From positions 122,518 through 186,517 of the IMG/VR virus record IMGVR_UViG_3300026521_000471: 64,000 bases of DNA, one strand, 5' to 3'. Below the pieces are notes generated by a model. The model searched no databases. It saw nothing but the letters and a program-made list of their open reading frames with translations, and was not told the origin of the DNA. The first letter of the stretch is position 1; every line of letters starts with the position of its first letter. Origin of the DNA: a virus. Shown here piece by piece: positions 2,154-62,606 of the stretch. The translations under genes were made by a program, and so were the position numbers.

Positions 2154-2675
2154 ATGAAATTAAAAGACTTAATCAATGAAGAAAAAGAAACTAAAGGGAC
2201 TTATGCAGGTGTATTACTTAGTCAAGACGATGAAGATAAAATCATCTCAATAGTGAAAGAAATGGGAATACCTAATCCTATTCCTCGAAAAGATATTCAT
2301 ATTACACTTTTGTATAGTAGAAAGGTACTACCAGATTATAAACCAAATGAAAATTTAGATATTTGGGCATATCCGACTGAATTTCATATTTTTAATGGTG
2401 GTAATGGTAAAGATATTCTTGTATTAAAGATTGACTCTCCTGATTTAGTTAAAAGACATAAAGAGTTGATGAAAGAACATGAAGCTACTTATGATTTCCC
2501 AGAATATATCCCACATATCACATTAAGTTATGATTTAGAAGATTATTTAAATACAGAAGATGATAGACTTAAAGCCATTAATGAAAAATTTAAAAGTTTA
2601 TTACCTAAAGAGTTTCATTTAGTTAGAGAATACGTAGAAGATTTAAATTTAGATTGGGAGAATAGTAATGACTGA
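2154..2675 (+). CDS. 2H phosphoesterase (LigT / 2'-5' RNA ligase / cyclic phosphodiesterase family)
   Basis: Two H-x-T/S-x motifs (DIHITLLYS and IPHITLSYD) with the spacing typical of the 2H family. Confidence 0.6.
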   Translation: MKLKDLINEEKETKGTYAGVLLSQDDEDKIISIVKEMGIPNPIPRKDIHITLLYSRKVLPDYKPNENLDIWAYPTEFHIFNGGNGKDILVLKIDSPDLVKRHKELMKEHEATYDFPEYIPHITLSYDLEDYLNTEDDRLKAINEKFKSLLPKEFHLVREYVEDLNLDWENSND

Positions 2676-29333: not shown

Positions 29334-31511
29334 ATGGATGTTAAATATTTTTTAGAAAAATTAGGAAGTTTATTAATTATTGGATTTGTTATTATATCCA
29401 CGTCTATTATACTTTATTTTAGCTATAAGTCAAATAATAAAGATATTATGGATGACATTGACAATAATTTACGCCACGAATTGATTATTTTATCTATTGC
29501 GTCCGAAGATTTGTTTAACAAATATAACAATATACTTACAATGTTAGGGGATAATATTTTATCCAAAGATAATAAACAAAAATATTTAGATACAGCATTA
29601 AAATTAGAAACTGATGCAGTGGGCTATGGTTTTATATCACCCGAAGGTAATATATTAATTAACTCCTCAAACGTCGATATAAAGAAGATCTCTAATTTTA
29701 TCTCCAACCCCAAAACTAAAGGAACATTTCTTAAAACTATAAAATCAAAATCATCAATTTTAGGACGGTCATATTTATTTAAACCGACAAATCAATTAAT
29801 TGTACCAATAAGAAAAAGTATTAGGAAAAATTCAAAAGTATATGGTGTACTAGCGGTAGGCATTAATATAAATAAGTCGTTTTCTAATTTATTTACAAAT
29901 AAAATACATAACAATTCTATAATTTTATTAATCAAAAATAACTCAGCTAGAATTCAATATTCAAACGATAATACGTTCGAAATAGATTCTATTTTAAAAA
30001 CCGATAATCCTCGACTTTTTAAAACTATAAATCAAATGACATTGACTAATACATCATTAAATAATATAAAATATAGGGTAGGTGTAAAATTTATTGAAAA
30101 ATACAATCTATGGCTTGTTATAGGCTTTCCTTCAAAAGTTATATCTTCATTAAAAAATGAATGGTTAATAAATGCTGTATCTATATGGTTTGTTTTTAAC
30201 GTAAGTTTTATTATAATGATATTAATTATTAATAAGATTAATAACGATCGGAAAAATGAATTGGAATATATTTCTATACATGATCCATTAACACATATTG
30301 GAAATAGATATTATTTAAATAAGAAAATAGTCGATTACGAAGAATATAGTATGCTATTTTTAGATCTAGACAATTTTAAATTTATAAATGATAACTTCGG
30401 ACATAATTACGGAGATAAATTTTTAGTTTCTATAGCAACAGAACTTAAAAAAAATATTTCTGCTGATGATTTATTAATACGTTTTAGTGGTGATGAATTT
30501 ATAATTATTACTAGGGAAATGAATAAAGATAAATTATTAAGTTTTGCTAAAAGATTATTGAATATGACTAATGAGAAATTTAAATATGAGCATAAGACAA
30601 CCATGAGTATTGGTATTGCACAACGAGAGGGATCTGAAGATCTACATAATGTAAAATATAAAGCAGATTTAGCTTTATATATAGCAAAAGAAGAACTAAA
30701 CACCATTATATTCTATGATAAAAATATAGAAGAATCATTTAAAGAAGAACATTTAATAGAAAATGAACTATTAGAAGGTATTATTTTAAAAGAAATTTTC
30801 ATGGTTTATCAACCACAATTAAATACTAAAAATAAAATCGTAGGAATAGAAGCATTAGTTCGATGGAATAATTCAAAGTTAGGTTATATAAATCCCGAGA
30901 CATTTATCAAAATCGCTGAAAAAAATGGAAATATGATAATTTTAGGTGATCATATATTAAATCAAGTTTTTAGTGATATTAATACATTTAAAAATATAAT
31001 TCCAGATAATTTTAATATATCTATTAATATTTCTGTTAAACAATTTATGGAAGATAACTTTGTACAAAAATTAAAGGATAAATTATACCAATATAAAGTC
31101 AATCCAAATAATATCACATTAGAAGTAACAGAAAATATATTTATTTTAGATTTAAACTATATGGAACAAATAATAAATGATTTGCATACATTGGGTGTAA
31201 AAATTTCTATTGATGATTTTGGAACAGGATACTCTTCTTTATCTTCTGTTAAACATCTGACTATTGATGAAATAAAGATTGATAAATCTTTTGTAGATAA
31301 TATTGAAAACGACCATAGTTCCAAAAGTATGGCTGAAGTAATTATTAAAATGAGTAAAATTTTTAATACCATTATTTTAGCTGAAGGTATAGAAAATATC
31401 AAACAAAAAGAAATTCTTGATAACTTAGGGTGCGATTTCTACCAAGGATATTACTTTTCAAAACCTTTACCATTAACAAAATTAAAAGAGTTCATAAAAA
31501 ATAATATTTAA
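29334..31511 (+). CDS. membrane-anchored sensor protein with GGDEF (SGDEF variant) and EAL domains (c-di-GMP cyclase/phosphodiesterase family)
   Basis: Two predicted transmembrane segments flank a ~250-aa extracytoplasmic region. GGDEF domain: HDPLTHIGNRYYL, LDLDNFKFINDNFGHNYGDKFL, RFSGDEF. EAL domain: EALVRW, LEVTENI, DDFGTGYSS, KIDKSFV, AEGIEN, QGYYFSKP. Confidence 0.8.
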   Translation: MDVKYFLEKLGSLLIIGFVIISTSIILYFSYKSNNKDIMDDIDNNLRHELIILSIASEDLFNKYNNILTMLGDNILSKDNKQKYLDTALKLETDAVGYGFISPEGNILINSSNVDIKKISNFISNPKTKGTFLKTIKSKSSILGRSYLFKPTNQLIVPIRKSIRKNSKVYGVLAVGININKSFSNLFTNKIHNNSIILLIKNNSARIQYSNDNTFEIDSILKTDNPRLFKTINQMTLTNTSLNNIKYRVGVKFIEKYNLWLVIGFPSKVISSLKNEWLINAVSIWFVFNVSFIIMILIINKINNDRKNELEYISIHDPLTHIGNRYYLNKKIVDYEEYSMLFLDLDNFKFINDNFGHNYGDKFLVSIATELKKNISADDLLIRFSGDEFIIITREMNKDKLLSFAKRLLNMTNEKFKYEHKTTMSIGIAQREGSEDLHNVKYKADLALYIAKEELNTIIFYDKNIEESFKEEHLIENELLEGIILKEIFMVYQPQLNTKNKIVGIEALVRWNNSKLGYINPETFIKIAEKNGNMIILGDHILNQVFSDINTFKNIIPDNFNISINISVKQFMEDNFVQKLKDKLYQYKVNPNNITLEVTENIFILDLNYMEQIINDLHTLGVKISIDDFGTGYSSLSSVKHLTIDEIKIDKSFVDNIENDHSSKSMAEVIIKMSKIFNTIILAEGIENIKQKEILDNLGCDFYQGYYFSKPLPLTKLKEFIKNNI

Positions 31512-40314: not shown

Positions 40315-40517
40315 TGATAACTGAAATTATAAGATTTAACTGTCATGTATTAAAGGTAAATAAATATAACAAAATAACTCCTGATGAATTGTTATTAGAA
40401 TATAAAACTCGTAACAACCTTATTTTAGAAAATACGGAAGTATATGTTGAAAGCTGTAAATGGGCTGCTGGAAGTACTAGTACTATTATAACAAAAGTGA
40501 AAAGGATAGAAAAATGA
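40314..40517 (+). CDS. hypothetical small protein
   Basis: ORF track. Confidence 0.35.
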   Translation: MITEIIRFNCHVLKVNKYNKITPDELLLEYKTRNNLILENTEVYVESCKWAAGSTSTIITKVKRIEK

Positions 40518-40963
40518 CTTATGCTCAAAATAAAAAGGCTAGATTTAATTATGAAATCATAGAAATATTTGAAGCAGGGATTGTACTAACAGGTGGTGAA
40601 GTAAAATCTGTAAGAGATAGTACAATTTCTCTTAAAGAAAGCTATGTTAAAATAAAAAATAATGAATTATTTTTAACTCAAGCTCATGTTTCAGTCCCTA
40701 CATACATACCATCATATGCAGTATTTGATGAAGTCCAAGATAGAAAATTGTTAATGCATAAAAGAGAGATTTTAAAACTTAAAAATAAATTGAAAGAACA
40801 GGGTTTGACTTTAATTGTATTATCAATTTATCAACGTGAAGGCACAAAAAAGATAAAAGTACAGTTGGCATTAGCTAGAGGTAAAAAATTATATAATAAA
40901 AAACAAACTATCAAAGAACGTGATATTAAACGAGATATGGAAAGAACATTAAAAAAATTCTAA
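40514..40963 (+). CDS. smpB: SsrA-binding protein SmpB
   Basis: KKARFNYEIIEIFEAGIVLTGGEVKSVR...LLMHKREILKLKNKLKEQGLTLIVLSIYQREGT.KIKVQLALARGKKLYNKKQTIKERDIKRD aligns along its full length with bacterial SmpB. Confidence 0.85.
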   Translation: MTYAQNKKARFNYEIIEIFEAGIVLTGGEVKSVRDSTISLKESYVKIKNNELFLTQAHVSVPTYIPSYAVFDEVQDRKLLMHKREILKLKNKLKEQGLTLIVLSIYQREGTKKIKVQLALARGKKLYNKKQTIKERDIKRDMERTLKKF

Positions 40964-41003: not shown

Positions 41004-41297
41004 ATGGCAAGAAAGAAAAAGATTCAAGAAGAAGTAGAAGTACCAGTTGTTGAAGTAACTGATGAAGAGATTCAAGAAGAAGTAGAAGTAGAAGTAGAAG
41101 TACCAGTTGTTGAAGTAACTGATGAAGAGATTCAAGAAGAAGTAACTGATGATTTTGATAATATTGCAATTACTGATTATGCTATGGTATCAAATGAATT
41201 AGCAAAAAAAATACTTGAGAAAAAAGGTAAAAAAGTATTATTTGAAGAGCCAGAAGACGTTCAATCTAGCTTTCATATGAAACCATTAAAAAAATAA
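41004..41297 (+). CDS. acidic repeat-containing protein
   Basis: ORF track; contains tandem EEVEVPVVEVTDEEIQEEV repeats. Confidence 0.45.
   Translation: MARKKKIQEEVEVPVVEVTDEEIQEEVEVEVEVPVVEVTDEEIQEEVTDDFDNIAITDYAMVSNELAKKILEKKGKKVLFEEPEDVQSSFHMKPLKK
41021..41152. repeat. tandem direct repeat (~48-60 nt unit, 2.5 copies) within the coding sequence
   Basis: GATTCAAGAAGAAGTAGAAGTACCAGTTGTTGAAGTAACTGATGAAGA is repeated with a 12-nt insertion. Confidence 0.7.
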
Positions 41298-43071: not shown

Positions 43072-44325
43072 ATGGCTATTTTACAGCTCCATTCTGATGA
43101 TCCAAATTTTGGATACATTATCAAAAAAAACCCAAATTCATCTATGCAAATAAGAAGTATACGTAAAGGTACTGCTTTTACATGGTATTCTCATAATGGT
43201 ACCGACTTTAATATTTATTTTAAAGATGCTGATAATGATGTATCGTTTGGATCGCAAGAATTCGATTATCTAAATATTTCTAAATATAATTCACCGATGT
43301 TTATTATCAATGCAATAAGTGAGTTTTTTTCAAGTACTGTTAGAGAAGAATCAGAATTAGATATAAAAAGTTCAAAATATTTTTATATTAACTTACTTGA
43401 AATCAAAAGAATAAAACAATTAATGGATTTTAAGAAATATTTCCCTGATTTTGAAATTGAAATTACCGAACAAGTTGGGAAAAATTATACTATTAAAGTA
43501 ATAACTGAAAATAGTTGGTTTATGTTATTAAATTATATTAATCTTATGATGATTTTTATTGCATTATCAAGTAACGACTACGTACATTTAGATAGTTCAA
43601 ATATTGAAAAATATCTAAATGCTATGAATCGATTGGATGCACCATTTTTTATACGTTATTTAGTAAGTAGAAATCTTATTAAAAGTAAAAACCAATTTAA
43701 AAAATATAAACAATTACTTGAAAAATCAAAAAGATATAATATCAATATGGCATATGGTAATACGGCTATGCAACGGAAAGACAAAATAGAACGTTTATTA
43801 TCATTTGATAAATCGATTCTTGATATTGGGTGTGGAGAAGGTTTTTATGCTATAGATTTTTCTAAAAAAATAGAAAAATATTCTTATAATGCCATTGACA
43901 TTAATCCTAATCTATTAGAGTCGATCAAGATAAAAGCTTCAAAAAAAGAAATTACAAATATTAATCTCTTTAATAGTCTAGAAGATTTTATAAAGATTTA
44001 CAATGATGAGTTAGTAGATATAATACTAACTGAAGTTATTGAACACATGCCAAAAGATGAATCAAAAAGATTAATAGAGACAGTATTGATGTCTATTAAT
44101 TTTAATACATTCATTATTACCGTACCAAATAAAGACTTTAATATTTTTTATGAATTAGGTGATGAAATGAGACATGATGATCATGACTGGGAACCTACAT
44201 TTGATGAATTTAAAAATTTTATAGCTAATTTTAATAATGATGGTTTATCTTTTGAATTTATAGAAATAGGTGATACTATCGATGGTATCTCTACAAGTAT
44301 CGGTTGTATAATTAAAAAGGTATAA
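43072..44325 (+). CDS. hen1: Hen1-like RNA 3'-terminal 2'-O-methyltransferase (bacterial Hen1 architecture: N-terminal domain plus C-terminal Mg-dependent methyltransferase)
   Basis: C-terminal domain: ILDIGCGEGFYAIDF (SAM motif I), LTEVIEHMPKDE (the Hen1 EVIEH metal motif), MRHDDHDWEPTFDEF (Hen1 HxDHxFEWTxxEF). The ~240-aa N-domain is consistent with the ligase-activating domain. Confidence 0.8.
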   Translation: MAILQLHSDDPNFGYIIKKNPNSSMQIRSIRKGTAFTWYSHNGTDFNIYFKDADNDVSFGSQEFDYLNISKYNSPMFIINAISEFFSSTVREESELDIKSSKYFYINLLEIKRIKQLMDFKKYFPDFEIEITEQVGKNYTIKVITENSWFMLLNYINLMMIFIALSSNDYVHLDSSNIEKYLNAMNRLDAPFFIRYLVSRNLIKSKNQFKKYKQLLEKSKRYNINMAYGNTAMQRKDKIERLLSFDKSILDIGCGEGFYAIDFSKKIEKYSYNAIDINPNLLESIKIKASKKEITNINLFNSLEDFIKIYNDELVDIILTEVIEHMPKDESKRLIETVLMSINFNTFIITVPNKDFNIFYELGDEMRHDDHDWEPTFDEFKNFIANFNNDGLSFEFIEIGDTIDGISTSIGCIIKKV

Positions 44326-44327
44326 AA

Positions 44328-45212
44328 ATGCTATTAACATTTGGAGGATATGGTGGTGAATATTGCTGTGGTGAACTCAGTAAGCTTCATATTAACAATA
44401 TAAAAGAACTACTTAGACGTTTTGAATACGAAGATATTATTGGACATTTCGATACAATTTTTAGTAGTAGTGGATGGGAAAGACAATATTATGATTTTGA
44501 TGATATTGAACATATTTCTAGCTGTGCCATTGATGGTAGTATTTCTATTAATCCTAATGAACGCGAACATACAAAGTATGATTCTATTAATATTAGTGAT
44601 TTAACTATCAATATCAATGATGATGACTTTTTATCTGATGGTTGGTATATTTCATCAGCTTCCATAGAAAAAGGTATTTTTTTTGAAGCAGAAATTTTAG
44701 ATGATGTCAATGAATTTAATAAAGATTTACTGATCATAGATGCAAAAGATACAGATTATATTGGTACTGGAGACATTTTAGTTACTGATGTTTTTTACAA
44801 TAATAAAGTCCTCGAAATGAACTATGATGTTATGGATACATTCGGTAAAGGTTTCTATCAAAGTATTTTTCATGTTAAAGATAGGATACATTATGACGGA
44901 AAGGAAAAACTCCTAGACGATTTTAAAAACTCTTTTAATATTATTGAAATGGTTGGTATGGATCGTGAAGATATAATCTTTGAATATTTAGAATATGTAG
45001 AAGCTGCAAATAATAAGCATTTAATAAAAGATGATCGAATTATAGTTTGGGCTAGTCCATTCTTATATGAACATTTTGAAAAAGAAGATGTAGACCTTTT
45101 ATGGATGACTGAAAAGAATATTAAATTCGCATTGAAAAATGGTTTAAAAGATGAAATACCACCAAATATTTTTGAACGTATTATTATGAGGTTTCCAGAA
45201 TGGCTAATTTAG
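44328..45212 (+). CDS. hypothetical protein
   Basis: ORF track. Confidence 0.45.
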   Translation: MLLTFGGYGGEYCCGELSKLHINNIKELLRRFEYEDIIGHFDTIFSSSGWERQYYDFDDIEHISSCAIDGSISINPNEREHTKYDSINISDLTININDDDFLSDGWYISSASIEKGIFFEAEILDDVNEFNKDLLIIDAKDTDYIGTGDILVTDVFYNNKVLEMNYDVMDTFGKGFYQSIFHVKDRIHYDGKEKLLDDFKNSFNIIEMVGMDREDIIFEYLEYVEAANNKHLIKDDRIIVWASPFLYEHFEKEDVDLLWMTEKNIKFALKNGLKDEIPPNIFERIIMRFPEWLI

Positions 45213-45490
45213 TATATGGTATTACCATTGATAGAAAATTATTTCATGGCAAAATTATAAAATCCAGTTTGAAATCTATGATTTCTATTAAGACAGTTGA
45301 TAATAGAATTTTAAATTTTCCTAAGTCTCATAAATTATTTAAAACAAAAGAAGAACGAGATATAGAAATTTTTTTAAATAATAATAATTTAAGCATAGAT
45401 AAAGTTGCAGAGTTATATAATATTAACAAAAAAGAGGCAATTTTAGCTTACCAATCAGCTATTAAAAAATTTCCCGAAAAATTTATATAA
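45200..45490 (+). CDS. hypothetical protein
   Basis: ORF track. Confidence 0.35.
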   Translation: MANLVYGITIDRKLFHGKIIKSSLKSMISIKTVDNRILNFPKSHKLFKTKEERDIEIFLNNNNLSIDKVAELYNINKKEAILAYQSAIKKFPEKFI

Positions 45491-45499
45491 AGGATCATT

Positions 45500-46093
45500 G
45501 TGAATATTAAAAGCAATATAAAATCTAACATTAAAGGTAAATCCTTAATAAGAACAAAATCTTACATTATACCGACTACTGTAACATTTCTTATAGGTTG
45601 TTTTATATGGTTATTAGATGGTAGCTGGGGAGTATATTTAACATTTTTAATTATAGGTATCATTACCCACTTTATTTATGTAGGTATAAATGAACATTCA
45701 AGATATAATCATGATCTGCATTGGGATAATGAAGCCTATTATAATTGGTTTGCCATTGTTGGTTTACCAATGATATTAATTGGTATTTTTTACCCATTTG
45801 CTATATCCCCAGCAATCCACGACTATTATCATGCAGAACGAATTGATGAAGAAATACCTATCGACAAAAATATTTCTCTTATGTACAATGACTACCATAG
45901 TACATTTATATTAATGGTTGAAGGAGAAAAACAACCTCTTCTAATTGATAAAGGTGGTTCTAGCGATACTTACAATCGTATGAAAGCTAGCTATCTTGAT
46001 AAAAAAATAAAAGTAGTTAAAAAAAGATATAAATCTTGGACTGATGACGAAATTCAAACAGTTTATCAGTTAGATGGTTACACATTCAAATAA
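45500..46093 (+). CDS. hypothetical membrane protein
   Basis: ORF track; hydrophobic helices. Confidence 0.4.
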   Translation: MNIKSNIKSNIKGKSLIRTKSYIIPTTVTFLIGCFIWLLDGSWGVYLTFLIIGIITHFIYVGINEHSRYNHDLHWDNEAYYNWFAIVGLPMILIGIFYPFAISPAIHDYYHAERIDEEIPIDKNISLMYNDYHSTFILMVEGEKQPLLIDKGGSSDTYNRMKASYLDKKIKVVKKRYKSWTDDEIQTVYQLDGYTFK

Positions 46094-46102
46094 AGGATTT
46101 TT

Positions 46103-48793
46103 ATGAATAAAATTAAAACACAAGTACATACTATAATAATGCTTATTGGACCTAGTGGTTCTGGTAAAACAACATTCGCTAATGAAATTCTAATACCCAC
46201 ATTACAAGAATATAAAGGTAGTGGAAATGACAATTTAAAAACAAATATACAATATATTAGTTCTGATGATATTAGAAAAGATATTTTAGGATATAATTAT
46301 AGTAAAATAGATGAAATTATGACTGAAAGTTCAACACAAGCATTTGAAATATTATTTACAAAATTAAGAGCTGTTACTAGTTATCCAATCAATGCTGAAT
46401 TTGTTATTTTAGATACAACTGGATTAAGTGAAAAATTTAGAAATGATGTTTTAGATATAGCAAAAGATAATAATTATAATGTCGATATTATAGTTTTCGA
46501 TTATAAGAATATTGATGAATATCAGAAAAATTTTTCTGATGAAGTTTATCAACAACCTAGTACTAATGGCAAAATTATTTCTAAGCATATAAAAAGATTA
46601 AAAACAGAAACATTAAAAACATTAAAAAAAGGTGTATATAAAAATATTCATAAAATTAAAAATAAAGATTTTCTTTTAGAAGTTGAACAGGAGAATCCAT
46701 ATGATTTAACACCTACTATGTTAAAACCTCTTTATAGTGTAGATGTATGGGATTGGAAAAAATATACTGATAGAATATTAAATAGTACTTATGATTGGAT
46801 TACTATTGGTGATGTTCATGGATGTATTCATGAATTAAAACAATTACTTGAAAAATATGGTTTTATAATTGAAGACAATGAAATCATAGATACAAACAAA
46901 ACAAAAAATATAGGATTGATTTTTGCAGGTGATTTAATTGATAAGTCGTCAGAAGAAGATTTAACTGAAACTATAAGATTTATACATAAAAATATGATAA
47001 AATTTCAAGATCGTTTTCAATTAATATTAGGTAATCATGAAGAGATGGTCTGGAAATGGATAACAAATCATAAAGATTTAGAAATTACTCCAGAACGATT
47101 GGATCAGAAAAAAAGATACTATAATACAGCAATTTTACTAGAGAAAAATGAAGAGTTAAAATCTATGTTTTTAGATATTTTTCATAATATGAAAGGTTGG
47201 GTTAAATTTATAGGATTAAACAAAAGAAGTTTTGTAGTTACACATGCACCATGTGAGGTTAAATATCTCGAAAAAATGGATCGTATTTCATTAAAACGTC
47301 AATATAAATGCGCTAGTAGAAGTAAAAACAAAGATAAGACTAATGATGAACTAACACCATATTTAAAAGAAGAAGCAGTTAATAACCATCCAGTTCACAT
47401 ATTTGGTCATATGGGACAATCATCTGTTAGATCTTTTAAAAATAAAGTTTGTATTGATACAGGCTGTGTATATGGTGGAAGATTAACTGGATACAGTATA
47501 GGATACGGTAAACCATTTATTCAAAGTGTAAAATCATTATCTCCTAAGAGTGCAAGAAACGACTTTGGAAATAATCTATTTGAAGATATAGGTAAAGCTA
47601 TAAAAGAAGTATCTATTGAAGATTTAAATCCATACAACCAAAAAAGATTAGATTATATAGTAAAAAATGGCATAGGATACATAGGAGGTACAATTTCACC
47701 TTCAAATAAAAACATCGAAAAAAATTCACTAGAATCTTTAGATAGTGGACTTAATTATTTCAAAGATAAAGTAGATAGTGTAGTTCTACAACCTAAATAT
47801 ATGGGGTCTAGAGCACAACTGTATCTCTTTAAAGATAATATTGAAAAATGCTATGCTACAAGTAGAAATGGATATAAAATTAGAGAGGACTTAACTGATT
47901 TATTCTCATCTAAATTAATAGAATACAAGCATATTTTTGATATGTATAATGCTGATGAGATAATTATAGATGGTGAATTATTACCATGGGCTCTTTTAGG
48001 AAAAGGTTTGATAGAAACACATTTTAAAACTGCGGATATAGCTATCCAAACAGAAATCGACTTTCTGGATGATAATGGGTTTGATAAGGCTTTTTTAAGT
48101 TTAAAGGATGAATTTAATGAATCAGAATTTTTAAAAGATAAAAATATTTTAGCTAAAAAAGAATTAGCTAAAAAATATGGTCACAAATATCACTCTTATA
48201 AAGATTTAAAATTTGAAATTGATAGATTCATACCTTTAAGTAAACACAAAAAAGCTTGGAAAATTTTCAATAAACAAATAACCCTTTATGGAGATGATAC
48301 AAATACAGATTTTAAAGGTTTTAGATTATTAAAAGTAATATCAAATAACAATATAATCGATTTGGATCTAACCCCTAGCGAACACTTTAAACTATTAAAT
48401 TCAGATGATATTCATATTGTTGATTTCAATGATAAAGACTATTTAGTTAAAGCTGAAAGATGGTATGATGATTTAGTGAGTAATCAAAATATGGAAGGTT
48501 GTGTAATAAAACCGGAAGTAAAGTTATTAGAATCTTGGATTGCTCCATATTTAAAAGTAAGAAATGAAGAATATCTTTCTATCATTTATGGGTATGATTA
48601 TAAATTCCCTGTCAAATTTAATAGATTATTAAATCAAAAAAATATTTCTAAAAAATTAAGACTCTCTATATCAGAGTATAAATTAGGAGAAGAAATGCTT
48701 AAAGCTCCTATGGGTAGTAAAGAACAAATACAGATTATAGCCAATCTATTATTTGAAAATGAAAAAGAAGAAAGCGTCGATCCAAGATTATAA
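46103..48793 (+). CDS. pnkp: bacterial-type polynucleotide kinase-phosphatase-ligase (Pnkp): P-loop 5'-kinase, metallophosphatase, and adenylyltransferase/ligase domains
   Basis: IMLIGPSGSGKTTFAN (kinase P-loop). ITIGDVHGC, IFAGDLIDK and LGNHEE (calcineurin-like phosphatase). C-terminal ...VVLQPKYMGSRAQLY (nucleotidyltransferase KxxG motif I). At 896 aa with this domain order it matches Clostridium-type Pnkp. Confidence 0.85.
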   Translation: MNKIKTQVHTIIMLIGPSGSGKTTFANEILIPTLQEYKGSGNDNLKTNIQYISSDDIRKDILGYNYSKIDEIMTESSTQAFEILFTKLRAVTSYPINAEFVILDTTGLSEKFRNDVLDIAKDNNYNVDIIVFDYKNIDEYQKNFSDEVYQQPSTNGKIISKHIKRLKTETLKTLKKGVYKNIHKIKNKDFLLEVEQENPYDLTPTMLKPLYSVDVWDWKKYTDRILNSTYDWITIGDVHGCIHELKQLLEKYGFIIEDNEIIDTNKTKNIGLIFAGDLIDKSSEEDLTETIRFIHKNMIKFQDRFQLILGNHEEMVWKWITNHKDLEITPERLDQKKRYYNTAILLEKNEELKSMFLDIFHNMKGWVKFIGLNKRSFVVTHAPCEVKYLEKMDRISLKRQYKCASRSKNKDKTNDELTPYLKEEAVNNHPVHIFGHMGQSSVRSFKNKVCIDTGCVYGGRLTGYSIGYGKPFIQSVKSLSPKSARNDFGNNLFEDIGKAIKEVSIEDLNPYNQKRLDYIVKNGIGYIGGTISPSNKNIEKNSLESLDSGLNYFKDKVDSVVLQPKYMGSRAQLYLFKDNIEKCYATSRNGYKIREDLTDLFSSKLIEYKHIFDMYNADEIIIDGELLPWALLGKGLIETHFKTADIAIQTEIDFLDDNGFDKAFLSLKDEFNESEFLKDKNILAKKELAKKYGHKYHSYKDLKFEIDRFIPLSKHKKAWKIFNKQITLYGDDTNTDFKGFRLLKVISNNNIIDLDLTPSEHFKLLNSDDIHIVDFNDKDYLVKAERWYDDLVSNQNMEGCVIKPEVKLLESWIAPYLKVRNEEYLSIIYGYDYKFPVKFNRLLNQKNISKKLRLSISEYKLGEEMLKAPMGSKEQIQIIANLLFENEKEESVDPRL

Positions 48794-53348: not shown

Positions 53349-54488
53349 ATGAAAAAAAGTATGAGAGAAGAATCTTTAGGAACTAGACTTAAAGGTTATG
53401 AAAGAGAGTTTGAATCAGTAATCGATCCAAAGGATTTTATTATTTGTAGAATTGATGGACATAAATTTAGCAAATATACAAAAGGTATGAAAAAACCATT
53501 TGATAAAATGTTGTCAAATACAATGGAGGAAACTACTAAAGACCTTGTTGAAAAATTTGGAGCCGTAACGGGCTATACGCAATCTGATGAAATTTCATTG
53601 GTTTTTGTCCCTCAATTCAAAGAAAGATTAATACCTATTGAAACCAAAGAATTATTTGTTCTTAATGATGAAGAAGCAACCTATAAAGTTTATGACAAAG
53701 AATACAACTTGCTAGGTTCATTAGATATTAGTTATGAAGATATGGATGATGAATATTTCAGTATTAACTTTTGGGTAGTTTCTGATACTAATGATGAAAT
53801 TATCGATCAATGTTCTTGGCAAAATAGAAACTCTAAAACTGAGGCTAAAGCATTAGAAACGCTTTTAAAGTATATCATTAAGAAAGTTGAAATAACAAAT
53901 GAGCAAATTTTTGGAGGAAGAGTTCAGAAATTAACTTCTTTGATTGCGGCATATACTACTATGCAGTTTAATAAACACTTTTCTAAATTTTTAGAAAAAA
54001 CATACGAAGATTATGAAGAAAAATTAGAAAAGGGCGAAATCGATACGAATAGTTTAGAGGCCATGAAATACCTTAAAACAATGGATGAAAAAGTAGGTAA
54101 TGCTTGGTTTGATGCTAGAGTTTATGGCGTATCATCTAAAGAAGAAGCATTTAACAGTATTATGTGGCGAATTCGTGATGCCGAGAAGAACTCTAGATCA
54201 ATGTTTGCACAGACATACTGCTCTCATAAATCGCTATTAGGAAAAAATGGTCTTGAACAGGTTGAATACTGTAAAGAAACTACTGGTAAAGATTGGGAAG
54301 AAGTTGAAGATAAATACAAATATGGCATTTTAGTTAAAAAAGAAAAATATCTTAAACCTATTTCTGAAGGGACTATGGATTATGCTCAAAATGATTTTGT
54401 AGAAAGATCCAGAATTATTAGTTGGGCTGAAAAAATTACTACTTTCTCTGGTGAAAAAGTTGAAATGGTTGTTAGGAAATATAAATGA
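53349..54488 (+). CDS. Thg1-like protein (tRNA-His guanylyltransferase family 3'-5' nucleotidyltransferase)
   Basis: FIICRIDGHKFSKYTKGMKKPFDKMLSNTMEETTKDLVEKFGAVTGYTQSDEISLVF aligns with Thg1 (VVVRLDGRNFHRF...GQSDEYSFVF), including both metal-binding carboxylate motifs. Confidence 0.8.
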   Translation: MKKSMREESLGTRLKGYEREFESVIDPKDFIICRIDGHKFSKYTKGMKKPFDKMLSNTMEETTKDLVEKFGAVTGYTQSDEISLVFVPQFKERLIPIETKELFVLNDEEATYKVYDKEYNLLGSLDISYEDMDDEYFSINFWVVSDTNDEIIDQCSWQNRNSKTEAKALETLLKYIIKKVEITNEQIFGGRVQKLTSLIAAYTTMQFNKHFSKFLEKTYEDYEEKLEKGEIDTNSLEAMKYLKTMDEKVGNAWFDARVYGVSSKEEAFNSIMWRIRDAEKNSRSMFAQTYCSHKSLLGKNGLEQVEYCKETTGKDWEEVEDKYKYGILVKKEKYLKPISEGTMDYAQNDFVERSRIISWAEKITTFSGEKVEMVVRKYK

Positions 54489-57367: not shown

Positions 57368-58771
57368 ATGGCTTTATTAACTTACGATGAAGTATTAGAA
57401 ATCACAAAAATAAATGAAACTTTTAAAATGAAACACCAAAAAATAGGTAACACAGAAATTGCAATGTGTACTTATTTTTTAGCAAATGCAGGTGATTTTT
57501 TTGATGCAAAATTAGATGGCTCTATGGTTAGAGCCACAGAATTAAGAGGTATAACATTTGTAAAAGCTCCAAATTCAGACTGGAAAACATATTTGTTTAT
57601 CGATAAATTTTTTAATATCGGTCAAACAAATGGAACTAATATAACAAATATGGAACTTTCTATCAATGACTCAACTGAAATTTGTAATATTAATAAACTT
57701 TTTATCGATGAAAATGAGAAAACATATCGTGCAATAGATTTAAAGTTAAATATGATTGTTGCTGAATTTGATAGAAATACTGAAACTCATGGGGATTTTT
57801 TTCAAATTTTATCACTAGATAAAAAAGTTTTACCTACATTGAAACCTGAAAATTCTTGGATGTATGAGGATGTAAAAGATTTAGAAATTGTAAGAATTGC
57901 AAATAAAGAAGATGGATCCGCAATAAGATTTCTTTTAATTGAAGGAAAATTAGTGGCTAAAACAAAATTTTCTTTTGAATCAGAACAATGCAAATTAGCT
58001 ATGGAAATAGTTGAAAAAGATCCTAAACTTAAAGCATTTATTTTAACAACTTTAGAGTTTGGATATGCAGCAATTTTTGAAATAGTTTCACCATTTAATA
58101 AAATCGTTTTAACATATCCAGAAACATCTCTTAGATTGTTGCAACTAAGAGATGAAAATAATGATGGGTTATATCTAAATATATATGATAATACATTAGT
58201 AAAAGCATTTAATATCTTGACTGCCAATCAAGAACCTTTATACACACTTGATGAGTTACTTAAATTAAAAGAAACCGTTGAAGATAAAGAAGGTTGGGTA
58301 ATTACATTTGAAAATGGAAAAATGGCAAAGGTAAAAACTGATTGGTATATGTCACTTCATGGTATTTTAACTGATGGGTTAAAAGAACATAAAATAATTG
58401 AAAAGGTTTTAGACGAAACGATTGATGATACTATAGCAATGATACCAGAAGAAAATATTGAAGAACGAGATTTTATTGATGGTATCTCTGAAATTATAAT
58501 TAATCATGTAAATCATTTAGTGTCAGATGCAGAAGCTAAATTTAAAAATTCATGGAATGGAAATAAAAAAGAGTTAGCACTAAAATTTAAGGATGATAAA
58601 CGTGCTTTTCCATATATAATGAGTTTTGCAAATGGAAAAAATATTGAAGAAATTGAAAAACAAGTTATAGATAGAGTTAAATTTGAATGTAGACGTTTAG
58701 AAATGGCTAAACAATACCTTAAAAATTTAGGTTTTGACAAAGAACTCGAAATAAAAATTGAGGATGATTAA
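57368..58771 (+). CDS. rnl1: RNA ligase 1 (T4 Rnl1 / gene 63-like tRNA repair ligase)
   Basis: ELRGITFVKAPNSDWKTYLFIDKFFN, ANKEDGSAIRF (motif I KxDGS), EFGYAAIFEIVSPFNKIVLTYPE and KEGWVITFENGKMAKVKTDWYMSLHG align block by block with T4 Rnl1. Confidence 0.85.
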   Translation: MALLTYDEVLEITKINETFKMKHQKIGNTEIAMCTYFLANAGDFFDAKLDGSMVRATELRGITFVKAPNSDWKTYLFIDKFFNIGQTNGTNITNMELSINDSTEICNINKLFIDENEKTYRAIDLKLNMIVAEFDRNTETHGDFFQILSLDKKVLPTLKPENSWMYEDVKDLEIVRIANKEDGSAIRFLLIEGKLVAKTKFSFESEQCKLAMEIVEKDPKLKAFILTTLEFGYAAIFEIVSPFNKIVLTYPETSLRLLQLRDENNDGLYLNIYDNTLVKAFNILTANQEPLYTLDELLKLKETVEDKEGWVITFENGKMAKVKTDWYMSLHGILTDGLKEHKIIEKVLDETIDDTIAMIPEENIEERDFIDGISEIIINHVNHLVSDAEAKFKNSWNGNKKELALKFKDDKRAFPYIMSFANGKNIEEIEKQVIDRVKFECRRLEMAKQYLKNLGFDKELEIKIEDD

Positions 58772-58773
58772 TC

Positions 58774-58941
58774 ATGAAATACGGTTTTAGTTTATTTGAA
58801 TTAATTATTGTAGTTGTAATATTGGGAATTCTAGCAGCAGTTGCTATTCCTAGATTATCAAATTCTTCATCAAATAATGATAAAATTTCATACAAAAAAA
58901 TAATTTTTACTAATGGTGATGGTGGATCCGCCGAGAATTGA
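58774..58941 (+). CDS. short type IV pilin/pseudopilin-like ORF (55 aa): prepilin leader and N-terminal hydrophobic helix only
   Basis: MKYG|FSLFELIIVVVILGILAAVAIP is a canonical class III signal peptide with Glu at +5. The 3' end overlaps the tmRNA 3' terminus. Not in ORF track because it is under 60 aa. Confidence 0.35.
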   Translation: MKYGFSLFELIIVVVILGILAAVAIPRLSNSSSNNDKISYKKIIFTNGDGGSAEN

Positions 58942-59301
58942 ACTCGGGTCTGCCACTACTTCCATTTAAATCTCATTTACAAGTTTAGTTTGATTTTTAA
59001 TACTTTAATACTTAGATAACCAAACAAATCGGTATTAAAGGCACTTGATATAATTTTCGTCTAAAGGTATCAAGTTTAACTTTAGCTTATCTATTTTTTA
59101 TTATACACTCTGTATTTATTAGTAAATAGACAACTAATAAACTGAGTGATTCCGGGCTCCCAGAGGGAGGATTAAGCAGCTACTCTCGCAGTCTGTGGAA
59201 TATAAAGTTTTGTGTTTGCATTTAAGCTTTTTTGATGATTAAGTCATCACTCTACTTGCAATTTAAATTTCTTATAGCAACATCGATCCCAATTCGGACC
59301 C
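58920..59301 (-). ncRNA. ssrA: tmRNA (SsrA), 382 nt
   Basis: Minus-strand 5' end GGGUCCGAAUUGGGAUCGAUG resembles the tmRNA 5' end GGGGCUGAUUCUGGAUUCGAC. The 3' end is ...CCGAGUUCAAUUCUCGGCGGAUCCACCA (T-arm plus acceptor plus CCA). The acceptor stem pairs with a G3:U70 wobble (alanine identity). An internal tag ORF (59219..59172) reads GCA AAC ACA AAA CUU UAU AUU CCA CAG ACU GCG AGA GUA GCU GCU UAA, giving ANTKLYIPQTARVAA, followed by a CUCCC/GGGAG helix. Confidence 0.8.
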
Positions 59302-59310
59302 ATAAAAAAT

Positions 59311-59337
59311 ATCAGTATATAGAAATTATATACTGAT
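59311..59337. other. perfect 11-bp-stem hairpin (ATCAGTATATA-gaaat-TATATACTGAT) just upstream of the tmRNA 5' end
   Basis: Read from the sequence; flanked by a T-run on the minus strand. Confidence 0.5.
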
Positions 59338-59575
59338 ATGATAATATCCTTTATTTTATACCCAAGGTAACAAAGAACCCTTTACATAAAAAAACACATA
59401 CGATATTAATTTATCTTTTTACTTGTAAGTAAATTAGAGCGTTATCAATTAAGATAAATACGTTCCATAAGAGTTATTTTCTCTAGGTCAATCTCTAAGA
59501 TAAAATTTTAAAGAGTAATTTAAATCTCTTATATATTTATTTTACAATTTTTAATTTAATTATAAGGTATTTTTT

Positions 59576-59584
59576 GATATAATA
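59576..59584 (+). promoter_or_regulatory. extended -10 promoter TGATATAAT upstream of rsr
   Basis: TTTTTTGATATAATATATTAC, 36 nt before ATG 59620, which carries a TAAGGAG ribosome-binding site. Confidence 0.45.
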
Positions 59585-59619
59585 TATTACAAATTTTAAA
59601 TAATTAAGGAGATTGTCCT

Positions 59620-61119
59620 ATGGCAAAATTTAACCAAGGTACTAAAAGTATCCCAAATAGTAAAAATATGGCTGGAGGGGTATCATATGATCGCCCAATA
59701 AAAAAAGAGGTTGCGACTGTTGTTTTAAACTCTATGCTTAATGGTGATTCATATTATGAAAAAGAAGGTGAACGTTTAAAACGAATTGAAACTCTTATCA
59801 CTACATCAAAGTCTGATGCTGAGTTTGTAGCAAAAGCTATGGTGTTTACTAGAACAAATGGTCGTCTTAGAAGTATTTCACATTTCATGGCAAATATTTT
59901 AGCAGAAAATGTAAAAGGTAGTGACTTTTTACGTTCAGCATTAACAAAAGCTATTGTAAGACCGGATGATATGACAGAAATGTTATCACTTTGGGATACA
60001 AGAAATCCAAATAAAATGGTTCCGAATTCACTTAGAAGAGCCTTTAAGAAAGCTTTGGAAACTAAATTTGATGAATATCAATTTCGTAAATATGCTCAAC
60101 CAAAATCAAAAGTGAAACTAAAAGATGTCGTTAAACTAGCACATCCTTCACCTAAGAATTTTGATGATGAAACTATTTTTAAAAGAGTTATCGAAGATCA
60201 ATTAAAGGCTGTTGAAACAGCACAAACTATCAATGCATCTAAAACTGGTGAAGATCGAGTTGAAGCATATATGAAAGAAATTAAATCTGGTAAAATGGGT
60301 TATATGGCAGCATTAAAAAATATTAGAACATTGATGGAAAATAATATTTCAGAAGATGACTTAAAACAATGGTCTAATTTTATAACTGATCCTAAAAGGG
60401 TACAAAAATCAATGGTACTTCCATTTAGATTTGTTGATGCATGGAATGCTGTAAAAGATTTACCTATTAATGAATTTAAGAAAAATATTGTTAAGAAAGC
60501 ACTTGAGAGAGCTTTTGCCCTATCAGCTGGAAATACAAATATTGCTTCTGATGATGAAAAAGTGGCTATTTTACTTGATGAATCAGGTTCTATGGGCGGA
60601 TATTCAAATAATGACCGTAAAACACCATTTTATATTGGTAAAGTATTATCAGCTGCGATGAAAGTAGGTATGGATGATGATAAGTGTCTGTTTTATACTT
60701 GGGCAGATACATGTACAAGAAGAGATATAAAAGGTTTGTCATCTTTTGATTTTATCAATAATTTAAATACTAGAGGTGGAGGTACTGATGTATCAGCTCC
60801 TTTAAAAGAGTTAATTAAAACAAAAACATTTGTTGATAAAATTATAATCTTTAGTGATATGCAGATGTATGGTGGATGGGGAAATATTGGAGATCAACTC
60901 AAAAATTATTTAAAAACATATCGTAAAGAAGTCAATCCAAATGTAAAAGTATTATTTTGGAATTTAGAAGGATATGGTGGTGGTTCACCATTAGATATTG
61001 AAAAAACATCTGATATTTTTGAAGTAGCTGGTTTTTCAGATAGCATGCTTCAAATTATACCTAAATTATGGAGTGATAAAGATTTTTTAATTAAAGAGAT
61101 TGAAGCTATATCACTTTAA
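59620..61119 (+). CDS. rsr: Ro60-related protein (Rsr): TROVE domain plus vWA domain
   Basis: N-terminal NMAGGVSYDRPIKKEVATVVLNSMLNGDSYYEKEGERL (TROVE), KLKDVVKLAHPSP (the Ro60 RLSHLKP region), vWA MIDAS VAILLDESGSMGG and TRGGGTD, IIFSDMQ, and C-terminal VAGFSDSMLQII (Ro60 CGFDTGALDVI). Confidence 0.8.
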   Translation: MAKFNQGTKSIPNSKNMAGGVSYDRPIKKEVATVVLNSMLNGDSYYEKEGERLKRIETLITTSKSDAEFVAKAMVFTRTNGRLRSISHFMANILAENVKGSDFLRSALTKAIVRPDDMTEMLSLWDTRNPNKMVPNSLRRAFKKALETKFDEYQFRKYAQPKSKVKLKDVVKLAHPSPKNFDDETIFKRVIEDQLKAVETAQTINASKTGEDRVEAYMKEIKSGKMGYMAALKNIRTLMENNISEDDLKQWSNFITDPKRVQKSMVLPFRFVDAWNAVKDLPINEFKKNIVKKALERAFALSAGNTNIASDDEKVAILLDESGSMGGYSNNDRKTPFYIGKVLSAAMKVGMDDDKCLFYTWADTCTRRDIKGLSSFDFINNLNTRGGGTDVSAPLKELIKTKTFVDKIIIFSDMQMYGGWGNIGDQLKNYLKTYRKEVNPNVKVLFWNLEGYGGGSPLDIEKTSDIFEVAGFSDSMLQIIPKLWSDKDFLIKEIEAISL

Positions 61120-61139
61120 TATTAGATAGGGAAACCTAT

Positions 61140-61970
61140 CTAATCAATGGGTGACAAATCAACTAATTCTTGATTTCCTTCTTCATCAATTTCAATCTCA
61201 AATTCTCTACCTTCTAAATTTTCTTTAGCATACTCATCACTATAATAATAGTCCCACGAAGTTTGTAAAGAGTTTTGTAATGTATCATAATGTTCTTCTA
61301 AAAGATTATTAACTTCTTCAACATAAAGCTCTATTTCATTTTCTATTTGACTTTCTATTTCAGCTCGTATTTCAGAAGTTAAATCATAAAATTCATTCAA
61401 ATCCATATTATAAACATCTTGAAAAAACATTTTTGATGCTTTAATGCCATCTTTAATACTATTCAATGAGTCTTTATATTCCGGTTCATAACCTAATTCA
61501 TTTAACCATTTTTCAATTGACTGTTCAACTTCAAAAACTATTTCGATTTGTTCTCCATCCTCTAATGGATCTAAAAAAATCCTTGATTCGATTTCACTAT
61601 CTATAACATCAGTATCGATATAATAATCTTCAGTTTCTAATTCATAATTTTGAAAACTATATGGAAGATCATAAACAAATGATTCTTTTTCAAATTCATC
61701 CAAACGAGATGACTTAATTTCTTTAATAGATTTATGACCATCATCGATTGTACCTCTATATTCTAATTCATTTCTATAAAGGTCGAATGTAAAACTATCT
61801 TCATCTATATCTATCCCAAATTCAGTTTTCATAGTATTGACAAAATCATCAAAAATCCACTCATACCAATCTTCAGGAACTAAAAATTCATCTTCCTGAA
61901 AATTAACAATTATTTCTTCTTTTAATTTTTGAGGTAAATCCTCAAATTTTACAATTTCAGTTTTAAACAT
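61140..61970 (-). CDS. hypothetical acidic protein
   Basis: ORF track. Confidence 0.45.
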   Translation of the reverse strand: MFKTEIVKFEDLPQKLKEEIIVNFQEDEFLVPEDWYEWIFDDFVNTMKTEFGIDIDEDSFTFDLYRNELEYRGTIDDGHKSIKEIKSSRLDEFEKESFVYDLPYSFQNYELETEDYYIDTDVIDSEIESRIFLDPLEDGEQIEIVFEVEQSIEKWLNELGYEPEYKDSLNSIKDGIKASKMFFQDVYNMDLNEFYDLTSEIRAEIESQIENEIELYVEEVNNLLEEHYDTLQNSLQTSWDYYYSDEYAKENLEGREFEIEIDEEGNQELVDLSPID

Positions 61971-62015
61971 AATATCTCCAATTAAGTTTTTATTATGTTT
62001 ATTTATACCTTATTT

Positions 62016-62291
62016 CTAATCATTACGGATGATACCAAATATTTCATCCATTTCAATAATTAATAATTTTTCTTTATCTAATTCAATTTCAGTACCAGAA
62101 AATTTTCCAAAAACAACTGTCGTACCAATATCTACACCGAAATCTTCTTTAGTATCATCGTTACATGCTACAATTTTTCCAAAAGATGGAGTTTCTTTTG
62201 ATGAATCAGGTATAATAATACCACTTGCTGTTGTTTTCTGAGCTTCCTCTACTTTTACCGCTACTCTAGTTCCTAATGGTTCAAAATTCAT
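62016..62291 (-). CDS. groES: co-chaperonin GroES / T4 gp31-like (Hsp10)
   Basis: MNFEPLGTRVAVKVEEAQKTTASGIIIPDSSKETPSFGKIVACNDD...GTTVVFGKFSGTEIELDKEKLLIIEMDEI matches the GroES mobile loop and beta-barrel signature. Confidence 0.8.
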   Translation of the reverse strand: MNFEPLGTRVAVKVEEAQKTTASGIIIPDSSKETPSFGKIVACNDDTKEDFGVDIGTTVVFGKFSGTEIELDKEKLLIIEMDEIFGIIRND

Positions 62292-62315
62292 TTTAATTCC
62301 TTATTTTTTATTTTA

Positions 62316-62606
62316 TTATACAAATTTTTCAGGGTATTTTTCTAACATTTTAGTAAACATTTTATGAAGATCATTAATATTTACTTTAAACTGCTCTTCT
62401 ATAACCTTATTAATACTTAATATAGTTTTTAACATGGCTTCATCTTCTGATTTTTCTAATAAATGTTTAGATTTTCTTTTTGTATTTCCTCGACCAACAT
62501 CAATAATACAAAACTTATTTGTAATCCTTAAAATTTTTCCAGTAGAAATTTTTCCAGACCACTCATCTTGATACCAAACTTGCATACCTATTTCAAAATC
62601 TTTCAT
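62316..62606 (-). CDS. hypothetical protein
   Basis: ORF track. Confidence 0.4.
   Translation of the reverse strand: MKDFEIGMQVWYQDEWSGKISTGKILRITNKFCIIDVGRGNTKRKSKHLLEKSEDEAMLKTILSINKVIEEQFKVNINDLHKMFTKMLEKYPEKFV

Follow-up and report, generated by a model that had tools for sequence, protein, structure and literature searches.

The only tRNA-type gene called by ARAGORN across the 64 kb window (a term that refers here to the whole stretch of DNA analysed, with positions counted from its first letter) is a tmRNA gene, located at 58920..59301 on the minus strand. Rfam family RF00023 is matched at the same coordinates and over the entire model (positions 1-374 of 374), with 115.5 bits and an E-value of 2e-44. 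A complete tmRNA had been proposed at this place in an earlier note made from the sequence, and the two programs agree with that proposal; the covariance score lies above the gathering score of the family, which is 47 bits. Besides the tmRNA, the Rfam scan of the window gave nothing above any family threshold, and ARAGORN and Rfam revealed neither tRNA or rRNA genes nor bacterial housekeeping genes across the 64 kb. The features of the RNA, which is A+U-rich, and of the region just 5' of it are given below with the basis of each assignment in parentheses.

58920..59301, minus strand: tmRNA gene (ssrA), 382 nt, one-piece, CCA encoded (ARAGORN; RF00023; orthologues in six related contigs)
58920..58947, minus strand: 3' half of the tRNA-like domain (RF00023; covariation; sequence)
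58920-58922, minus strand: encoded CCA
58923, minus strand: discriminator A
58924-58930, minus strand: acceptor 3' strand CGGAUCC (pairs with 5' GGGUCCG)
58931-58947, minus strand: T arm (CCGAG-UUCAAUU-CUCGG)
58988-59041, minus strand: pseudoknot PK4, both stems (conserved complementary segments, compensatory changes)
59043-59085, minus strand: pseudoknot PK3, both stems (conserved complementary segments, compensatory changes)
59088-59147, minus strand: pseudoknot PK2, both stems (conserved complementary segments, pair counts)
59172..59219, minus strand: tag reading frame with GCA resume codon, 15 codons and UAA stop (ARAGORN; seven-genome comparison)
59234..59248, minus strand: PK1-position hairpin GAUGA-CUUAA-UCAUC, 5' of the resume codon (five pairs, 100% paired, three compensatory)
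59295-59301, minus strand: acceptor 5' strand GGGUCCG
59309..59339, minus strand: perfect 13-bp hairpin followed by UUUUUUAU (U run), ending 7 nt before G1 of the tmRNA (fold)

The acceptor stem GGGUCCG/CGGAUCC contains 7 bp, and the G3:U70 pair can be read directly from it. The tag, ANTKLYIPQTARVAA, is encoded by positions 83-130 of the tmRNA gene, with the GCA codon at 59219, and a small hairpin (UCCCU/GGGAG) follows the UAA stop. Every element that the earlier note had listed, namely the 5' end, G3:U70, the T arm, CCA, GCA, the tag reading frame and the helix behind it, is present in the sequence.

The leader hairpin folds with −13.3 kcal/mol (z −3.6), and most of the related loci described below have a hairpin in the leader too. 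Two substitutions in one of these (L018) produce G.U pairs on the tmRNA strand only, and in four relatives there is a TGTATAAT box 45-65 nt 5' of the tmRNA. The simplest reading is that the hairpin is probably part of a transcribed 5' leader that is removed on maturation. A scan for consensus promoters and terminators was uninformative in this A+T-rich DNA, giving 7 sites where 8.5 were expected.

RNA-repair neighbourhood and phage identity

The genes around the tmRNA that bear on its interpretation are the following.

40514..40963, plus strand: SmpB, 149 aa, with C-terminal tail (Pfam PF01668; PDB SmpBs; phage-only clade)
43072-44325, plus strand: Hen1 (Pfam Hen1_N and methyltransferase domains)
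46103-48793, plus strand: Pnkp (Pfam AAA_33 and PNKP_ligase; Metallophos from precomputed matches)
53349..54488, plus strand: Thg1-like tRNA 5'-end nucleotidyltransferase (Pfam Thg1, E 5e-27; phrog_4717)
57368..58771, plus strand: T4 Rnl1-type RNA ligase, the gene before the tmRNA (Pfam RNA_lig_T4_1; phrog_562, E 5e-50)
59620..61119, plus strand: Ro60/TROVE RNA-binding protein, divergent from the tmRNA with a gap of 318 bp (Pfam TROVE; phrog_850)

A small pilin-like ORF lies between the Rnl1-type ligase and the tmRNA, and upstream of these come the Thg1-like enzyme, a NUDIX hydrolase, Pnkp together with Hen1, and then SmpB. In phage T4, Pnk and Rnl1 mend tRNA that has been cut by the PrrC anticodon nuclease, and bacterial Pnkp/Hen1 carry out repair and methylation of cleaved tRNAs. 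In Salmonella, Ro60 is described as belonging to a repair operon that is induced by tRNA damage (PMC7790460).

The window has a G+C content of ~27%, nearly all of its genes lie on one strand, and most of its ORFs are without a Pfam domain. PHROG matches include T4-type topoisomerase II, PhoH, and UvsW-like and DnaB-like helicases, as well as phage-only families whose function is unassigned; GroEL, GroES, a sigma factor and a MazG-like pyrophosphatase are also present. One protein is ~40% identical to proteins of T4-like cyanophages, and homologues occur in Vibrio phages of ~195 kb. An Acb1 anti-CBASS phosphodiesterase is encoded at 2154-2675, and genes for NADAR and NAPRTase lie directly outside the window. 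Metagenome contigs of 140 kb and 224 kb encode an identical SmpB, and a related contig is present in IMG/VR. A scan of ORFs in the window and in the flanking sequence read showed no major capsid, portal, terminase or tail sheath gene, and the phage assignment is therefore based on gene content and relatives. At the DNA level, the tmRNA region and the first 25 kb gave zero matches to 50,697 GenBank phage records. Judged by its sequence, the window comes from a jumbo phage with T4-like gene content and a genome of ~224 kb. Within this genome, which is rich in counter-defence genes, the region around the tmRNA reads as one of RNA damage control, a description that reflects context and is not proof.

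Conservation of the tmRNA, its tag and SmpB

Orthologous tmRNAs are present in six related phage contigs, designated L018, L019, L020, L021, L007 and L105, whose loci were found by using the Ro60 gene as an anchor (five, and then a sixth). In all six, the tmRNA lies between the Rnl1-like ligase and Ro60. A degenerate tmRNA pattern of 31 bases was too specific as a search tool, and matched one IMG/VR relative and two metagenome contigs.

The secondary structure, consisting of the acceptor stem, H2, the PK1-position hairpin, H5, both stems of each of PK2-PK4 and the T arm, was mapped onto an alignment of six tmRNA sequences. Over the 101 proposed pairs, standard pairs occupy 93.2% of the cells, and 52 of the pairs show compensatory changes on both sides. 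The observed pairing and compensatory values were reached by none of 500 shuffles, and in a control in which the pairing partners were slid by 1-3 columns, pairing fell to 37-43%. The G3:U70 pair is invariant (six of six aligned sequences), and covariation is seen at acceptor pairs 4-6 and at three pairs of the T arm. Pairing amounts to 85-100% in H2 and in both stems of PK2, PK3 and PK4, with compensatory changes. The second stems of these three pseudoknots, which emerged when conserved complementary segments were sought without bias, are 94-98% paired, and those of PK3 and PK4 show compensatory changes. The same kind of search in the aligned phage tmRNAs gave no conserved second stem for PK1, which is the sole incomplete feature. 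Support covers the tRNA-like domain, H2 and both stems of PK2-PK4, and at PK1 the hairpin stem only. The T loops are non-canonical in several of the relatives' tmRNAs.

The seven loci encode five distinct tags, and in all seven the tag has 15 codons, a GCA start and a TAA stop.

Window and L018: ANTKLYIPQTARVAA
L019 and L020: AEAKLYIPQSTEVAA
L021: ANAKLYVPTALKVAA
L105: ANAKLYVPSAMRVAA
L007: AGAKLYIPQSAMATA

The motif A-x-x-K-L-Y-[IV]-P is common to all of them. The codons of its K-L-Y-[IV]-P core vary, with CTT, CTA, CTC or TTA for Leu and TAT or TAC for Tyr, and these synonymous changes point to selection on the peptide, beyond that on the RNA alone. Both the structure of the tmRNA and its tag peptide are under purifying selection. 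The tag terminates in Ala-Ala in six of the seven; that of L007 ends in ATA, and what is conserved about the role of the tag may thus be something other than proteolytic marking. Terminal Ala-Ala is conserved in listed bacterial tags and is crucial for ClpX docking (PMC12493166). The earlier note had called the tag distinctive and drew attention to its VAA ending. That ending is in fact ordinary, being found in 5 of 33 bacterial tags recovered beside bacterial smpB genes, and in the tags published for S. aureus, S. mutans and C. trachomatis; the length of 15 residues and the K-L-Y-[IV]-P core, on the other hand, do set the tag apart.

The tag of the window also bears a loose likeness to that of H. 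pylori (VNNTDYAPAYAKAA), at N2, Y6, P8, A11, K/R12 and the terminal AA. This likeness and the G+C content of 27% are hints of a Campylobacterota host, and may serve as a lead only.

The SmpB gene is separated from the tmRNA gene by 17,957 bp. The earlier note had placed SmpB here, about 18 kb from the tmRNA, and the assignment is supported by a full-length match to PF01668 (164.9 bits, E 1.4e-48, residues 4-148 on profile positions 2-143 of 143), for which the curated cut-off is 27 bits. The protein also aligns to SmpBs of solved structure (crystal and cryo-EM) up to residue 147, with an E-value of 8e-34 and with the C-terminal tail included. For tmRNA and SmpB, the E-values and the covariation among orthologues together exclude a chance match. 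The basic C-terminal tail, GKKLYNKKQTIKERDIKRDMERTLKKF, is kept throughout the phage SmpB clade; in the SmpBs that have been studied, this tail is needed in the ribosomal decoding centre. A protein search gave ~44 clusters of SmpB that are 59-100% identical to that of the window, and members of this clade lie on contigs of 221, 224, 261, 262 and 496 kb, among others. Past the phage clade there is a sharp drop in identity, with the best bacterial SmpBs at ≤54%. When a profile of the phage SmpBs was run against 185,579 species genomes (one per bacterial or archaeal species), the top identity was ≤53%, and the matches were scattered over many phyla. A recent bacterial donor is thus absent, and the scan gave no indication of the host. 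We place the SmpB of the window in a phage-only clade. Its match in PHROGs is phrog_6791, which carries the label 'unknown function'.

Matches to the SmpB and Ro60 homologues fall on contigs of equal size in four cases (221,509, 261,986, 84,540 and 261,391 bp), and two of the four (221,509 and 261,391 bp) were seen to carry the tmRNA as well, which indicates that tmRNA and SmpB are inherited together. The genes still run PDDEXK nuclease, UvsW-like protein, SmpB, Hen1 and Pnkp in genomes where SmpB is only 72% and 60% identical. The comparison identifies the two genes, at the level of sequence, as an apparently functional pair inherited within a phage lineage and not as host DNA.

Proposed role and alternatives

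We think it likely that the tmRNA and SmpB form a working trans-translation pair resident in the phage, whose task during infection is to free ribosomes held up on mRNAs that are cut or lack a stop codon. The steps set out here are all carried over from what is known of bacterial tmRNA-SmpB, and a match to the alanyl-tRNA synthetase, EF-Tu, ribosome and proteases of the host is assumed. The tmRNA transcript would begin with a 5' leader that is then removed up to G1. By analogy, it would then be charged with alanine by the host alanyl-tRNA synthetase, by way of G3:U70 and the discriminator A73, and be bound by the phage SmpB, a step that draws indirect support from the occurrence of both genes together in several genomes. 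Host EF-Tu would bring this complex to a ribosome that has stalled at the 3' end of an mRNA which is broken or has no stop codon. Translation would resume on the tmRNA at GCA, append ANTKLYIPQTARVAA and terminate at UAA, releasing the ribosome and leaving a mark on the truncated protein. From the gene context we infer that this module is part of a phage toolkit for RNA damage control, together with Hen1/Pnkp, the Rnl1-like ligase, the Thg1-like enzyme and Ro60. Such a toolkit would keep translation going when RNAs are cut by host anticodon nucleases, by toxin or CRISPR RNases, or by the phage's own decay of host mRNA. Going by the gene neighbourhood alone, the pair perhaps has a counter-defence role against host defences that cut RNA.

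A different use of the same two genes is possible, although we regard it as unlikely: the phage pair might compete with the tmRNA-SmpB of the host and thereby place a different tag on stalled products. The K-L-Y-[IV]-P tag would then either not be read normally by the host adaptor and proteases, or be read by a phage factor, and the fate of the tagged proteins would be altered, or a host response that depends on trans-translation would be blinded. In keeping with this, the tag differs from the 33 bacterial tags in its 15 residues, its core, a charged residue at −4 and the lack of [YF]-A-L-A-A, one family member (L007) ends in ATA, and the phage brings its own divergent SmpB instead of using that of the host; moreover, the truncated tmRNA of mycobacteriophage DS6A has been proposed to titrate SmpB (PMC4131195). 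However, the terminal Ala-Ala at which ClpX docks is retained in six of the seven tags (PMC12493166), and since the molecule is complete and its reading frame is under selection, the tmRNA is not a decoy fragment. The contrast between tags is also one with the bacterial tags that were recovered, and a difference from the host's own tag is presumed. We see still less prospect for a sensor or switch, in which the tmRNA would mainly let the phage gauge how many ribosomes are stalled, and so time its development or lysis, instead of rescuing translation in bulk. The promoter-like box and the structured leader that belong to the tmRNA could regulate its expression, but the sequence gives no pointer to a target protein whose tagging would switch anything, and the neighbours are repair enzymes, not lysis or regulatory genes.

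The constant proximity of Ro60 raises the question of whether the tmRNA could itself be the RNA partner of the phage Ro60, in place of a tRNA-like Y RNA (YrlA), and thereby tie the rescue of ribosomes to the decay or quality control of RNA. Ro60 adjoins the tmRNA in all seven genomes, at a distance of 0.3-3.4 kb, despite rearrangement in the form of varying orientation and intervening genes, and a scan up to 3 kb from Ro60 showed no T-arm-like motif apart from that of the tmRNA. An Rfam search for Y RNA families (E ≤5) over 58000-62500, and likewise in L019 and L020, gave no match around Ro60, a weak negative in that Rfam may hold no YrlA model. YrlA RNAs adjoin Ro60 in more than 250 bacteria and phages, but the searches behind this figure are stated by their authors to miss some Y RNAs (PMC4201824). 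Adjacency can also be inherited gene order among closely related genomes, in L021 three genes stand between tmRNA and Ro60, no Ro60-binding helix was identified in the tmRNA, and the stretch between tmRNA and Ro60 in the relatives contains a conserved non-coding element of its own, which could be the true partner. On balance, a partnership of this kind is very improbable. Slightly better, but still at long odds, stands a composite in which trans-translation is private to the phage and set in an anti-ribotoxin island of RNA damage control, the tmRNA doubles as the Ro60 partner, and the K-L-Y-[IV]-P sequence is read by a factor of the phage's choosing and not by the host adaptor; if this were true, ribosome rescue would be coupled to the removal of damaged RNA.

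It is extremely improbable that the locus is host DNA, whether a captured chromosome fragment, the remnant of a prophage attachment site, or a bacterial contig mistaken for phage. The concern arises because many SmpB records labelled as phage resemble host flanks, some being prophage ends with smpB at position 34-462 and others showing smpB followed directly by ssrA in the bacterial fashion, and because tmRNA genes commonly serve as integration sites (PMC12595487). Here, however, the tmRNA is 18 kb from smpB and amid phage-type gene content, both genes are kept in relatives of 221-496 kb, identity to bacterial SmpBs never exceeds 54%, and the 64 kb are free of tRNA, rRNA and housekeeping genes. 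An attachment-site remnant in particular was considered but rejected in view of a complete tmRNA, whose 3' end has no second copy in the window.

Comparison with known systems

Translation genes of huge phages are already known to include tmRNAs and SmpB (Al-Shayeb et al. 2020, Nature 578:425; PMC7162821), and the present pair is therefore not the first of its kind. The earlier note had called a phage with both components uncommon, which holds, but such phages are not new, since they appear in that study (PMC7162821) and the SmpB family is already in PHROGs as phrog_6791. Like those phages, the one described here has a very large genome with genes for translation termination and rescue, tmRNA and SmpB included. 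Two of the huge phages, LR756501 (735 kb) and LR756504 (636 kb), have SmpB-like genes that are 42-45% identical to the SmpB of the window, which belongs to a different clade; the tag motif is likewise specific to the clade described here, in which co-inheritance of the pair is shown across genomes of roughly 220-500 kb. The setting differs as well, in that the SmpB of LR756501 is located among tRNA arrays with no tmRNA within 20 kb, while the pair of the window lies in an RNA-repair neighbourhood.

Catalogued phage tmRNAs include those of the mycobacteriophage Bxz1 group and of Bacillus phage G, along with a DS6A fragment that comprises the tRNA-like domain only (Hudson et al. 2014; PMC4131195). 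The 2014 survey contained no phage smpB, all of its smpB genes being chromosomal except for one on a plasmid (PMC4131195). The ssrA of the window resembles those of the Bxz1 group and phage G in being phage-borne and one-piece. It differs from these and from DS6A in that the phage supplies its own SmpB, and no similarity to them was detected at the DNA level.

Compared with the tmRNAs of E. coli and T. thermophilus (cryo-EM structures such as 7ACJ and 6Q97), the RNA has the same tRNA-like domain with G3:U70, long H2, resume codon, short reading frame and pseudoknots, and SmpB, judged by its sequence, has the fold and C-terminal tail of the bacterial protein. The main departures from bacterial trans-translation are the tag of 15 residues with K-L-Y-[IV]-P in place of the usual ...[YF]ALAA, the A+U-rich RNA, and PK1 in the form of a hairpin only. 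In addition, smpB and ssrA are adjacent in many bacteria and 18 kb apart in the phage.

The neighbouring genes are homologous to components of T4 Pnk and Rnl1, of bacterial Pnkp/Hen1, and of the rtcBA-rsr-Y operons (PMC7790460 for the last). The presence of Rnl1, Pnkp, Hen1 and Ro60 homologues near the tmRNA supports the reading as RNA damage control. We know of no tmRNA or SmpB in any of these repair systems, and the link of tmRNA/SmpB to RNA repair comes here from co-location alone.

To our knowledge, the function of a phage tmRNA/SmpB has yet to be demonstrated experimentally, and the accounts consulted list the genes or speculate on them. The family described here would make a clean test case, with both partners co-inherited, an SmpB clade that stands apart from the bacterial ones, a tag motif that is traceable by mass spectrometry, and a location among RNA-repair and counter-defence functions. 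If the pair does protect phage translation from immunity that cuts RNA, ribosome rescue could be added to the known counter-defence strategies of phages, beside tRNA repair and NAD+ regeneration. Taken as annotation alone, a tmRNA and an SmpB are an expected feature of very large phages; what the sequence comparison adds to the known systems is the co-inheritance of the two, the phage-only clade of SmpB, the clade-specific tag motif and the RNA-repair setting.

Candidate RNA elements beside the tmRNA

Three related phage contigs share a conserved element, roughly 300-550 nt long and free of genes, on the tmRNA strand directly 5' of the tmRNA:

L019: 3823-4430, tmRNA strand, gene-free element
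L020: 3858-4440, tmRNA strand, gene-free element
L021: 1595-1960, tmRNA strand, gene-free element

Long stretches of the element are invariant, among them ACCU.UACUGUGUAAGCAAUGA and UGUAAAA.UGUGAA.CAGA.AUGU, and a TGTATAAT box lies on either side of it; one hairpin in the element shows two compensatory pairs. It holds no ORF of more than 44 aa, has no match in Rfam, and is absent from the window and from the related contig L018. The element is a candidate non-coding RNA of unknown kind, adjoining both the tmRNA and Ro60. In another relative, L105, there is a 1.1 kb gene-free gap at the corresponding place by the tmRNA.

In the window, a hairpin stops 7 nt short of the 5' end of the tmRNA:

59309-59339, minus strand: perfect 13-bp A+U-rich hairpin, then UUUUUUAU

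The substitutions in L018 keep the pairing on the tmRNA strand only. The structure resembles a terminator or a leader hairpin, and it may serve as a processing signal, an attenuator or an operator.

In four relatives, the T loop of the tmRNA departs from the canonical form:

L019: 3445-3822
L020: 3479-3857
L021: 1227-1594
L105: 5492-5876

In these the usual UUCRAnU is replaced by UGCGAUA, GGCAGUA or AGGCAGUG, although the T-arm stem covaries; two of the four (L021 and L105) were undetected by ARAGORN. The non-canonical loops may have co-evolved with phage SmpB.

Small ORFs, paralogues and nucleotide-related genes

Several other genes accompany the tmRNA and smpB in the window or in a 261 kb relative (L013):

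58774-58941, plus strand: 55-aa ORF whose N terminus carries the type IV prepilin motif MKYGFSLFELIIVVVILGILAAVAIP (Pfam N_methyl, weak match)
41004-41297, plus strand: acidic ORF with a repeated EEVEVPVVEVTDEEIQEEV unit, directly after smpB
4151-5482 and 5495-6805, plus strand: two adjoining paralogues, both matching phrog_10773 (function unknown; E 8e-52 and 2e-37, respectively)
L013, 11627-11794: ribosomal protein L33 gene, 1.2 kb downstream of smpB

The prepilin-like ORF has a counterpart of 57 aa kept in L018. The length of the acidic ORF varies between samples with the number of repeat copies, a polymorphism: the window and one JGI contig have 97 aa, and ENA contigs that are identical apart from this have 77 aa. 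The L33 gene is a further translation-related gene within the phage family.

A different set of genes lies in the window and in the DNA just upstream of it (L106):

L106, 1-8681: NAPRTase, GGDEF protein, NADAR and full GroEL
2154-2675, plus strand: Acb1 anti-CBASS phosphodiesterase homologue
29334-31511: dCache-GGDEF-EAL protein

The window also encodes NAD synthase, an isochorismatase-family protein and a NUDIX hydrolase. Taken as a set, these genes suggest NAD+ and cyclic-nucleotide counter-defence or signalling.

RNA-repair genes and Ro60

Genes for RNA repair and tRNA 5'-end and ligase functions all fall within one 16 kb stretch of the window:

43072-48793: Hen1/Pnkp pair, bacterial-type RNA repair
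53349-54488: Thg1-like tRNA 5'-end enzyme
57368-58771: T4 Rnl1-type ligase

The synteny of Hen1 and Pnkp with SmpB is kept throughout the phage family.

By Ro60, the closest cultured relatives are Vibrio phages of about 195 kb (about 50% identity), in which Rfam gave no Y RNA match. In the 2014 survey, a Y RNA lay beside most of the phage Ro60 genes covered (PMC4201824). With no Y RNA detected beside the Ro60/TROVE gene (59620-61119, plus strand, and flanks), the window Ro60 differs in this respect from most phage Ro60 genes of that survey (PMC4201824).
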